Positions 57,101 to 60,100 of a stretch of 64,000 nucleotides of DNA are shown here, one piece after another; position 1 is the first letter of the stretch; the number at the start of each line of letters is the position of its first letter. The position numbers are program-made. Origin of the DNA: Minisyncoccota bacterium (GTDB lineage: Bacteria > Patescibacteriota > Microgenomatia > UBA1400 > PJMF01); NCBI GenBank assembly GCA_009991965.1, contig JAACWQ010000005.1:22700-86699 (forward strand), given 5' to 3'.

Positions 57101-60100
57101 CAACAATGCAGTTGTTGATCCAAACACCACCCGCATCTCTCTATACAACAAAATAATAGCCACAACGCTCACCACAGCAACAGCTACAGCCGGTCCGATT
57201 GGGCTGGGATAACTCAAAAACAACCACGGTAACATGAAATAGTAGTAAAACGGACCAAGGTATAAATTGCCGACACTTGTGACCGGACCGATAAATGCCA
57301 GATCGTGTTCTAAAAATATTTTGGAGACTAAAAGCGCGTCTCTCCCCTGATCGCCGAGAAACATGAGCGTACCAGAAAGGTTATAAAAACGAACCGCAAT
57401 GGCAGCAAACAGCAACACTACAAAGAGGATTTTTGCAGGCGAAATACGCATACGAGACCCGGATTACTTTTTTTTCCAGATAAATTTGTTGTACGCAAAG
57501 AAGTTCCAGCCCATGCCGAGCAAAATTCCAGTAACGGCAAATACCAAGCCAGATTCGATCGTGAAATTGATAATTGGCAGCGTAAAAAGTGGTCGCAAGC
57601 CAATTGTTGCCTCACCCACCGCAGCTAATCCTAGTTGAATCAAGATCGAACCAACTGAAGTCAGATTGAACTGCAAAAATTTGACAAGTTTTTTTCCCTG
57701 TTCTAGTTTGCGATCGGCAAACGTCCAACCGTTATTGAGAATAAAGTTGACAATGATTGCACTCTCGATACTCAAGAATGAAGCTACAAAGAATGTTGTA
57801 AAAAACCCAGATTCAAATGTCGGGAGTAAAAATCGATAGAGCATAAGCGTGGTCAACTGCACCGCTGCCCCAGTAGCACCGACAACCAAAAACTTAAAGA
57901 CACGCATGGCCATAATCTCTCGTAGCCTCATTTTAAAGATAAACATAAGCGGTTTAACCAGATATTCTGGCCCCATCTTTGACTCGCCGACTGTACGGTC
58001 AATAAAGTGATACGCGATATTTGGATCAATTACAAAATTTTTGCGCAAAGCATAATAGAGAGAACCTATCTGGAACGTATAGCCAGAAAATAACCCAGAA
58101 TGTAAAAGTGGGTGCACTGCTTCATAGACATTTTTGGTAATAGCACGATAGCCAGAGGTCCAGTCTCGTATTTTAAAATTTGCAAAAACCAGTGAAATCA
58201 GCAAATTTGCGGCTACACTTATAAACTTACGGTGCAGACCCCAATTTTCGGGCATGCTACCACCTGGAATGTAGCGCGATCCGAGAACCATCTCACTTCC
58301 AGCCTCGATGCTTTTGAGGAACAATGGAATCTTCTTTGGATCGTGCGAAAGATCAGCGTCAAATTCAAAAACAACATCGGCACCCATTTTTCCAAATGCA
58401 TGTGCCATACCAGCCAGATAGGCTCCGCCAAGACCGCTCTTCTTTTTATTCAGCAACAAATGAACATTGGAGTACTTCTCGTGAAGTTTGCGAACTACTT
58501 CGTAGGTCTTATCGGGCGAAGTGTCATCCACTACCAGAATACTCAGTTTCCAACCAGAGATGTCGCGAAACACGTCGAGCACAGCCAGAGTCGTTCGCTC
58601 AATGTTTTCGCGCTCATTATAGGTAGGGATTATAACAACTGCCGTTTGCGCCATAAATTACTGCTCACTTTCCTTTTCCAGCTCCGCTTGCACCATAATG
58701 CTCACCAATTCTTCAAATCGAACTTTTGGTTCCCAACCAAGTTTTTCTTTTGCCTTGGTCGAATCTCCAATCAGGAGATCAACTTCTGCAGGCCGATCAT
58801 ACGCTGGGTTGTATTTGTACACTGCCTGCCAATCTGGTAATCCTGCCTCAGCGCAGGCAGCTATAAGAAAATCTTGTACTGAGTGCGTCTCACCTGTTGA
58901 GATAACGAAATCTTCTGCAATGTCATGTTGTAACATCAGCCACATTGCTTCGACATAATCTTTGGCATATCCCCAGTCTCGTTTGGCGTCGAGATTGCCG
59001 AGTTCTACATATTCTTGCTTGCCGAGTTTGACCCGAGCTACGCCGTTTGCAATTTTCCTGGTAACAAACTCCAATCCTCTGCGCGGTGATTCGTGGTTAA
59101 ACAAAATTCCAGAACAAGCAAATAGATCGTATGATTCACGATAATTAACCGTGATCCAGTGACCATACACCTTGGCAACACCATACGGAGAGCGAGGATA
59201 AAATGCCGTATTTTCTGTCTGAGGCACACTCTGAACCTTGCCAAACATCTCGCTCGAACTTGCTTGATAAAACTTGGCTTGTGGACATGCCAACCGAACT
59301 GCCTCGAGCACACGGACAACGCCAATAGCGGTGAACTCACCTGTCAAAACTGGTTGCTCCCAACTTGTCTGCACAAAAGACTGAGCAGCTAAATTGTAAA
59401 CTTCATCTGGTTGAATTTTTTGCAGTGGATAGGTAAGAGAGTTTTGATCAATCAAATCGCCACTAACCAACTCAAGATTTTCGTTATGTATCAGATGGGC
59501 GATGCGCGCATAATTTTGTGTGCTCGTTCGACGGGTCAAACCGTAGACTTTGTAGCCTTTTTCGAGCAAGAACTCCGCAAGATACGAGCCGTCTTGACCA
59601 GTGATACCTGTTATAAAAGCTTTTTTCATGTGATAGATCTCCAAAATTCTATTATACGTTGTAAAGTGTCCGTTAGGGAAATTTCTGGTTGCCAGCCGAG
59701 AGCGGAAATTTTTTGAATATCGGCCCGTAGTTCTGGAATATCAGCAGGACGCAGTCTTGCTTCATCGACTGCAATAGTAATGGGCACCTGTGCTAATTGG
59801 ATCAATCCATCAACAATAGTCTGCATCGAAACACCAACCCCAGAACCAATGTTATAGACCTCACCGACAACACCCCGTTGCATTACAACTGTATAGGCTC
59901 GAACCACATCTTTGACATCGAGAATGTCTCGAATTGCAGCCAAGTTGCCGACACGCAGCGTAGTCTGTTCGCCACGTTCTACTTTGACAATTTGTTCTGC
60001 AAACGCAGGAATCGCGAACGCAGTTGTCTGGCGCTCACCCGTATGATTAAACGGCCGCACGCGCAGTATTTGTAATCCATAACTTTGGGCGTAGGCATAA

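Follow-up and report, generated by a model that had tools for sequence, protein, structure and literature searches.

Three-component systems of extracytoplasmic glycosylation bring together a lipid-phosphate GT2 glycosyltransferase, a small flippase-type module and a membrane glycosyltransferase of the GT-C type (Mann & Whitfield, cited in PMC11127046). Which protein acts as the flippase for dolichol- and polyprenyl-phosphate-monosaccharides is a long-open question, and fused type-III dolichol-phosphate mannose synthases (DPMS) are one current candidate. In the enzyme from Pyrococcus furiosus (PfDPMS), flipped dolichyl-phosphate-mannose has been described in a pocket of the transmembrane (TM) domain, a domain that is dispensable for catalysis, and self-flipping of the enzyme's own product has been proposed as its role; type-III enzymes are held to be confined to hyperthermophilic archaea (PMC12992685). 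Here we analyse a 64,000-nucleotide stretch of DNA from a Minisyncoccota bacterium (contig JAACWQ010000005.1, positions 22,700 to 86,699; hereafter the window), in which one gene (57464..58654, minus strand) encodes a fusion of a GT2 polyprenyl-phosphate glycosyltransferase and a GtrA-like TM domain in a single protein of 396 amino acids. This GT2–GtrA fusion is a known, solved and database-annotated architecture, present here as a bacterial variant of a known enzyme. The protein probably makes a polyprenyl-phosphate-hexose, carrying mannose or possibly 6-deoxy-D-mannose, that would be moved outwards for use by GT-C enzymes encoded downstream.

The fusion gene is an uninterrupted open reading frame (ORF) from ATG to stop. 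An earlier note, made from the sequence alone, had proposed that it combines a GT2 domain of the polyprenyl-phosphate type with a GtrA-like four-helix domain, and had quoted two peptides, FKFLVVGATGAAVQLTTLMLYRFLL and NFFAYNKFIWKK, which we found at residues 253–277 and 384–395 of the protein. Both domains were confirmed. Pfam matched Glycos_transf_2 (PF00535) to residues 7–143 (E = 1.4e-27, 97 bits against a cut-off of 23) and GtrA_DPMS_TM (PF04138) to residues 254–393 (E = 2.1e-15, 57.4 bits against a gathering score of 26.1), the latter over the full model (positions 1–117 of 117). Each half was also recovered above its cut-off when queried separately, the N-terminal 256 residues with PF00535 (E = 5.2e-28) and the C-terminal 140 residues with PF04138 (E = 3.8e-15, 56.6 bits), and both hydropathy and AlphaFold2 placed four TM helices in the C-terminal part. 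One alternative is that the gene is an artefact of assembly or a frameshift joining two separate genes. Gene calls on 9 independent metagenome contigs yield the identical protein; the best 120 homologues all carry both domains (coverage 98–100%, length 382–404 amino acids); a genome scan found at least 538 species-representative genomes that carry the fusion in a single reading frame; and the solved archaeal enzyme is the same continuous chain. An artefact is ruled out by these observations, the chance of one being negligible.

The best solved relative of the protein is PfDPMS (5MLZ), which was retrieved at E = 2.7e-36 with the single sequence. A family profile searched against PDB returned 5MLZ at E = 1.3e-51, compared with 2.7e-15 for ArnC and 1e-13 for GtrB (5EKP). 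Foldseek aligned the model of the fusion with 5MLZ over its full length (E = 1.5e-21, 397 aligned columns) and also with 9EP0 and 5MM1, ArnC being the second-best structural match and GtrB the next. The C-terminal 140 residues alone gave no match to PDB sequences even at E = 10, and 5MLZ was reached only by the full-length protein and the profile.

To map residues, we aligned the bacterial and archaeal families, PfDPMS among them, with MAFFT L-INS-i, taking the roles of the PfDPMS residues from the structure paper (PMC5526996). A HMMER profile alignment that placed the fourth TM helix (TMH4) of PfDPMS on the hairpin region described below was rejected; L-INS-i gave a clean 14-column gap there and aligned the conserved G376 and W393. 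In the resulting map, Glu12 of the A-loop network corresponds to E14, the guanine-contacting Asp39 to D44, the DXD metal site Asp89/Asp91 to D99/D101 (within the DAD at 99–101), the sugar-contacting His94 to H104, the acceptor-phosphate triad Arg117/Arg131/Ser135 to R127/R142/S146 and the A-loop pair Arg202/Lys208 to R220/K226. These positions all lie within 57971..58654, and every mapped catalytic, acceptor-phosphate and A-loop residue is invariant among 40 family members. The GT-A fold with its DXD, the A-loop pair with E14 and the base-contacting D44 are features of DPM1/Ppm1-type GDP-mannose:polyprenyl-phosphate mannosyltransferases (EC 2.4.1.83-like).

The name GtrB, which the earlier note had given to the catalytic half, did not hold up. 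In favour of a GtrB-type UDP-glucose:undecaprenyl-phosphate glucosyltransferase fused to GtrA are the significant matches to GtrB and ArnC structures by both fold and sequence, and PgfS as best NCBIfam match, albeit far under its cut-off. Set against this, the DPMS match is about 36–38 orders of magnitude better than those to ArnC or GtrB, no match rises to an NCBIfam equivalog cut-off, the protein keeps every acceptor and A-loop residue specific to DPMS, the operon supplies GDP-sugars, and the membrane part is the four-helix PF04138 domain, not a two-helix anchor. On the NCBIfam and profile results we dropped the GtrB identity in favour of a DPMS-like one, and we consider the former very improbable. 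Judged from its sequence, the catalytic half is a DPM1/DPMS-type inverting GT2 rather than a GtrB-like one.

The present Pfam name of PF04138 is 'GtrA/DPMS transmembrane domain', which includes DPMS because a fusion of this kind has already been solved, and one Thermococcus record bears the name 'fused to membrane-bound GtrA-like domain'. The earlier note read architecture and context correctly, but its suggestion that a fusion would couple synthesis to translocation is not new as an idea, having been published for the archaeal homologue, where it is still a hypothesis (PMC12992685); more widely, a flippase role of GtrA proteins is disputed. We compared the protein with the strict type-III motif set of Gandini et al. 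2026 (PMC12992685, Methods). AlphaFold2 and the full-length Foldseek alignment predict the type-III architecture, in which one chain carries the GT2 domain, the interface helices and the four TM helices. The SRY motif with Arg131 and Ser135 is present (S126-R127-Y128, R142 and S146, invariant in the family), and Asn277 of the polar pocket is kept as N303. Elsewhere, DADxQHPP (Pf 89–96) reads DADLSHDP (99–106), with Ser103 for Gln93 and Asp105 for Pro95; KIL (Lys178) aligns with T193-F194-Q195; Asn248 of the polar pocket is Q266, a conservative and family-invariant polar swap that is off the letter of the definition; and the gate Phe338 is matched by M381, a position held by Met or Leu in relatives, with W383 and F385 two and four residues on. 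Because of these four departures the protein is not a type-III member under the strict definition; it is a bacterial relative that shares their architecture. Arg341 of PfDPMS aligns with N384, and the type-III enzymes from outside the Thermococcales all have Asn at that position too (PMC12992685). Together, Asn248, Glu271, Asn277 and Arg341 of PfDPMS align with Q266, E297, N303 and N384, all invariant in the 40 family members.

An AlphaFold2 model built from 40 homologues (mean pLDDT 87.9, pTM 0.75) divides the protein into three parts, all on the minus strand. Residues 1–228 (57971..58654) form the GT-A catalytic domain, predicted to be cytoplasmic and delimited by the modelled secondary structure and the residue map to PfDPMS; residues 230–249 (57908..57967) form an amphipathic interface helix that joins it to the membrane and aligns with the IFH2/linker region of PfDPMS; and residues 251–396 (57467..57904) form the GtrA-like four-helix TM domain with its invariant Q266, E297, N303 and N384, as supported by PF04138, hydropathy, the model and the invariant columns. 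Hydropathy and the model agree on TM helices at about 251–276, 287–311, 322–350 and 368–392. Clusters of Lys and Arg at 241–254, 314–325 and 390–396 mark the predicted cytoplasmic side, and from the placing of such clusters on alternate sides an N-in/C-in topology is predicted. In the extracytoplasmic loop between TM3 and TM4 the model places a beta-hairpin at residues 355–367, LFTLPIINFTIES (57554..57592), with strands at 355–359 and 364–367. It belongs to a 14-residue insertion, opposite which all archaeal sequences have the 14-column gap; the insertion reaches full length in this Patescibacteria clade only, most other relatives, whether fused or stand-alone, having a shorter one. Conservation is at least 90% at hairpin residues L356, F357 and P360, and G369, directly after the hairpin, is invariant. 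This clade-specific element could cover the pocket as a lid or serve to dock a GT-C enzyme.

The fusion gene sits in a co-directional, tightly packed minus-strand block. The first gene encodes a nucleotide-sugar dehydrogenase of the UDP-glucose 6-dehydrogenase type (Ugd, 60585..61883; TIGR03026, 447 bits against a cut-off of 190). It is followed by an Rmd-like GDP-4-keto-6-deoxy-D-mannose reductase (59626..60585; 2PK3 at E = 8.6e-60, 6X3B at 1.4e-43) and by the GDP-mannose 4,6-dehydratase Gmd (58658..59644; TIGR01472, 432 bits against an equivalog cut-off of 415), whose stop codon lies 3 nucleotides ahead of the fusion ATG; Gmd and the Rmd-like enzyme would be expected to yield GDP-D-rhamnose or a 6-deoxy epimer. 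In a mechanical ORF list, Gmd has a TTG start and overlaps the Rmd-like gene by 19 nucleotides (59626–59644); public gene calls put the start 5 codons later, giving a 323-residue protein and a 4-nucleotide overlap typical of translational coupling. Beginning 12 nucleotides past the fusion is a PMT_2/ArnT-like GT-C membrane glycosyltransferase with about 9 TM helices (55937..57451; PF13231 at 1.8e-08, and TM count), the presumed user of the lipid-linked sugar. Next come a short GT2 of 254 amino acids with no TM domain (55176..55940; PF00535; 5MLZ at 4.3e-16, then ArnC and GtrB), a GT-C-like membrane protein of the MptA_B family, a polyprenyl-phosphate-mannose-dependent mannosyltransferase family (53888..55174; PF26314 in precomputed annotation, and a weak TIGR03459 match at 8.9e-12), and a further PMT/PMT_2 GT-C that ends the cassette (52354..53895; PF02366 at 1.2e-10, PF13231 at 3.3e-10). 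PDB sequence searches with the two adjacent GT-C proteins gave no matches.

We scored the conservation of these neighbours, with their order and strand unchanged, over 80 species loci, with denominators that vary by neighbour. Gmd was directly upstream of the fusion in 69 of 72 loci, the Rmd-like gene was present in 61 of 70 and Ugd in 59 of 65. On the downstream side, the PMT_2 GT-C was found in 59 of 74 loci, the short GT2 in 64 of 72, the MptA_B GT-C in 63 of 72 and the terminal PMT GT-C in 47 of 66. All five core neighbours occurred together in 49 of 64 loci; the cassette is conserved across Microgenomates-type genomes, and its order was kept also where the outer flanks differ. Variant loci (L058, L062, L063, L064 and L069) have Ugd, Rmd and Gmd plus one extra gene ahead of the fusion and no GT-C genes, and more distant loci (L081, L083 and L086) have a single short-chain dehydrogenase/reductase (SDR) between Ugd and the fusion. 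The earlier view that the fusion is embedded among GT-C enzymes in need of lipid-phosphate-sugar donors agrees with the GT-C gene 12 nucleotides downstream and with the at least 16 GT-C paralogues of the window.

We propose that the GT-A domain would move a hexose from a GDP-sugar onto polyprenyl phosphate at the cytoplasmic face, that the lipid-phosphate-sugar product would cross to the outer face of the membrane, and that the adjacent GT-C enzymes would consume the lipid-linked sugar there. In one polypeptide, the fusion would then provide components one and two of the classic three-component system; a lipid-phosphate GT2, a small flippase-type module and a GT-C enzyme occur together in 59–64 of 72–74 related loci. 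The domain identities, the fold, the conservation of catalytic and acceptor-phosphate residues and the conserved operon are the observations on which this proposal builds. The lipid acceptor would be a bacterial polyprenyl phosphate rather than dolichol, and the sugar mannose or, from the neighbouring genes, possibly 6-deoxy-D-mannose (D-rhamnose).

Several points count against this proposal. The global superposition of the model on 5MLZ is loose (TM-score 0.57–0.63, root-mean-square deviation 10 Å), so the TM helices may pack differently from those of 5MLZ. Flipping is only a hypothesis even for PfDPMS, where by the authors' own account the observation could be a detergent artefact (PMC12992685). 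For Rv3789 and other GtrA proteins, a flippase role has given way to readings as hubs or anchors. The family has Met or Leu in place of the proposed gate Phe338, and Gln in place of Asn248. Finally, Lys178, which in PfDPMS contacts the O4 and O6 hydroxyls of mannose, is Thr in the fusion, and the sugar is not readable from the sequence.

By analogy with the archaeal homologue, from which the only direct evidence for flipping comes, self-flipping by the GtrA-like domain is plausible, and Q266, E297, N303 and N384 may help the headgroup to cross the membrane in the way proposed there. We searched the TM domain (residues 252–396) alone against 1.84 billion cluster representatives and obtained 381 proteins at E ≤ 0.001. 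Among the best 150 of these 381 matches, 80 have the size of a stand-alone GtrA protein (110–200 amino acids) and 39 match the catalytic domain too. In the 80 stand-alone-size relatives, some of which are perhaps fragments of fused genes, Asn or Gln is found at position 266 (69/80), Glu at 297 (63/80), Asn at 303 (72/80) and Asn at 384 (71/80). The fusion shares with the GtrA family both the four helices and, at all four positions, the majority residue, in line with the intramembrane Glu/Asn and the NFxxN..WTF and C-terminal NF/Y motifs that characterise the family. Because the stand-alone-size relatives have the same polar residues, the polar pocket appears to belong to this whole GtrA branch and not to fused enzymes alone. 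This is hard to square with the published description of the polar-pocket motifs as particular to type-III DPMS and absent from GtrA proteins, for which two distant members were compared (PMC12992685).

The GtrA-like domain might instead be an anchor, might give the polyprenyl chain a platform to rest on or might act as a hub that recruits the neighbouring GT-C enzyme, with flipping carried out by another protein, spontaneously or by a scramblase. In the 2017 structures the dolichyl chain merely rests on TMH4 (PMC5526996), PfDPMS is fully active after deletion of its TM domain (PMC12992685), a hub role has been argued for the GtrA homologues Rv3789 and PsPA7_6247 (Pseudomonas), and the clade-specific extracytoplasmic hairpin at 355–367 could be a protein-docking element. 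An anchor, however, needs neither four invariant intramembrane polar residues nor conservation at the level of a catalytic domain: identity to the window protein is 62% for the TM domain against 66% for the catalytic domain, TM4 is the most conserved element, and the conservation of the TM domain would seem to exceed the needs of mere anchoring. The polar residues are also kept in stand-alone GtrA relatives, which have nothing to anchor, and there is no other GtrA-like ORF within the 64-kb window to serve as an alternative candidate (our own hidden Markov model found the fusion at E = 2e-45 and the next best at 0.29). We give an anchor or hub role a substantial chance, short of even, and favour a domain that takes part in moving the sugar across the membrane.

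As to the sugar itself, characterised relatives and the families of the downstream GT-C enzymes point, by analogy, to mannose. GDP-D-rhamnose is a real alternative donor because the translationally coupled Gmd/Rmd pair is near-universal and the cassette has no cytoplasmic GT1/GT4-type transferase to take GDP-D-rhamnose instead. The physiological donor would then be GDP-D-rhamnose (or GDP-6-deoxy-D-talose) from the two upstream genes, and the product a polyprenyl-phosphate-6-deoxyhexose. The near-contact of the Gmd stop with the fusion start, the frequency of Gmd and the Rmd-like gene beside the fusion, and the variant loci that lack GT-C genes and still retain Ugd, Rmd and Gmd all fit such a donor. 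D-rhamnose differs from mannose only in lacking the 6-hydroxyl and could for that reason fit a DPMS-like site. We also place on this side the result of a literature search, which found no report of a lipid-phosphate-rhamnose donor. The close characterised relatives, however, all use GDP-mannose, mannose is also the sugar associated with the downstream MptA_B and PMT families, the short GT2 of the cassette could be the user of GDP-rhamnose, and the active-site map of PfDPMS and the fusion revealed no residue that separates mannose from 6-deoxy-mannose: the only contacts to O6 in PfDPMS are Arg117, needed for the phosphate anyway, and Lys178, which is not conserved. A 6-deoxyhexose donor is possible, if on balance doubtful, and mannose is our preferred sugar. 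We think it unlikely that both departures hold at once, that is, that this clade loads D-rhamnose from GDP-D-rhamnose, not mannose, onto polyprenyl phosphate and also translocates the product through its own GtrA-like domain. If true, this would amount to an undescribed lipid-linked 6-deoxyhexose donor and a compact mesophilic bacterial 'synthase-flippase' feeding very many GT-C enzymes.

The fusion family is present in at least 538 confirmed species genomes, nearly all of them Microgenomates-type Patescibacteria among the matches listed. Titled genomes include Pacebacteria, Woesebacteria, Collierbacteria, Beckwithbacteria, Chisholmbacteria, Microgenomates and 'Patescibacteria group'. The closest among the matches listed is a metagenome-assembled genome (MAG) of Candidatus Pacebacteria (85% identity), and a cluster look-up added two named distant fused representatives, from WWE3 and Patescibacteria. 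Many public MAG records with the cassette (L011, L014, L015, L018, L021 and others) are titled 'uncultured Pseudomonadales', and a few Methylococcaceae, Limisphaerales, Actinomycetota or TM6; these titles are probably placeholder or wrong taxonomic labels. A literature search found no paper on bacterial GT2–GtrA fusions or on GtrA in Patescibacteria, and the two 'GtrA-like' papers it returned concern stand-alone proteins. What is mildly new is a large mesophilic bacterial clade that lies outside the strict definition, with a hairpin of its own, a polar pocket in common with stand-alone GtrA proteins and a Gmd/Rmd–GT-C cassette.

Overall, the window is an envelope-glycan region. Polytopic GT-C-type paralogues occur at very high density at 1252–33550 and 52354–57451, numbering at least 16 in three sequence groups. 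Eight are PMT_2-like (4732–6234, 6231–7649, 14448–16142, 16106–17878, 17895–19586, 19577–21271, 22733–24343 and 24306–25916) and four are PTPS_related/YfhO-like (1252–2895, 9201–10895, 12746–14518 and 31892–33550); the remaining GT-C genes are the pair 7657–9204 and 55937–57451, and those at 52354–53895 and 53888–55174. Three further ORFs with 6–10 TM helices (120–1259, 11605–12846 and 21247–22725) stand outside these groups. Of the 19 polytopic ORFs, 8 have no Pfam match and are tied in only by BLASTP to neighbours or by TM count. A second small GT2 of 238 amino acids with no TM domain (10892–11608) lies between GT-C-like genes (7657–12846), including 7657–9204, a paralogue of a cassette GT-C; it and its neighbours may be a second lipid-sugar/GT-C module without a GtrA-like partner of its own. 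At 26679–37351 lies a conventional polysaccharide locus, made up of several GT2 and GT1/GT4 genes, a MOP flippase of the Wzx-like kind (30423–31895), a LytR-CpsA-Psr (LCP) ligase (33581–34681) and the dTDP-L-rhamnose genes RmlB, RmlC and RmlD (34849–37351). With the last of these as well as the Gmd/Rmd-like pair, the organism may make precursors of both L-rhamnose and D-rhamnose. At 48919–52340, an Asp/Glu racemase (48919–49638), a member of the D-Ala-D-Ala ligase family (49635–50714) and a VanX-like M15 D-Ala-D-Ala dipeptidase (50711–51487) form a co-directional block next to an OmpR-type response regulator (51669–52340); the layout is reminiscent of van-type clusters for remodelling peptidoglycan precursors.

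As a single gene, the fusion is an expected and already-annotated architecture. Its wider interest is that discussion of type-III synthases has so far been limited to hyperthermophilic archaea, and the same architecture and polar residues are the rule in these mesophilic bacteria with small genomes, a large group. The bacterial fusions thereby correct the archaea-only impression and offer additional, possibly more tractable, material on self-flipping. The window also hints that these ultra-small bacteria decorate their envelope mostly from outside, with a large number of GT-C enzymes drawing on very few lipid-sugar donors.

Among known systems, PfDPMS (5MLZ, 5MM0, 5MM1 and 9EP0; PMC5526996, PMC12992685) is the nearest. 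Like the fusion, it is a single chain of a GT-A domain, interface helices and a four-helix GtrA-like domain, and its DAD metal motif, acceptor-phosphate triad, A-loop Arg/Lys and TM2 Glu/Asn are kept in the bacterial protein. The two differ in that PfDPMS comes from a hyperthermophilic archaeon and the fusion from bacteria of mesophilic environments, with an identity of only about 28–32%; the fusion has the 14-residue beta-hairpin insertion between TM3 and TM4, its acceptor is presumably bacterial polyprenyl phosphate in place of dolichyl phosphate, and it is tied to Gmd and Rmd by its operon. With eukaryotic DPM1 and actinobacterial Ppm1 the fusion shares a product that would feed PMT- and MptA/B-type GT-C enzymes, both families being encoded downstream of it. 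It also has the signatures DADLSH, G-S/T-R-Y, GYxFQ and DRxxGESK, which look like those of the DPM1 type. DPM1 has one TM helix or none and separate DPM2 and DPM3 subunits, and the membrane domain to which mycobacterial Ppm1 is fused, or with which it is paired, is Lnt-like and unrelated; a GtrA domain is not known from either enzyme.

The Gtr system of Shigella and Salmonella phages (GtrB, GtrA and a GtrV-type GT-C) resembles the cassette in that a cytoplasmic GT2 charges polyprenyl phosphate, a GtrA module follows and a GT-C acts outside, all co-encoded, and the Gram-positive equivalents (CsbB/GtlA, GtcA and YfhO/GtlB) follow the same three-step logic. In the fusion, by contrast, one polypeptide unites the first two components, its synthase part resembles DPMS (GDP-sugar) instead of GtrB (UDP-glucose), the two-helix anchor and tetramer context of GtrB are missing, and the cassette has several GT-C enzymes and a second GT2. 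The ArnC–ArnE/F–ArnT pathway for undecaprenyl-phosphate-L-Ara4FN is alike at the operon level, with an upstream nucleotide-sugar dehydrogenase and SDRs, a lipid-phosphate GT2, a flippase function provided by small membrane proteins and a GT-C of the ArnT/PMT_2 type. It differs from the fusion system in that ArnE and ArnF are separate SMR-like proteins, ArnC has a TM hairpin of its own, and the sugars are others, carried on a UDP nucleotide.

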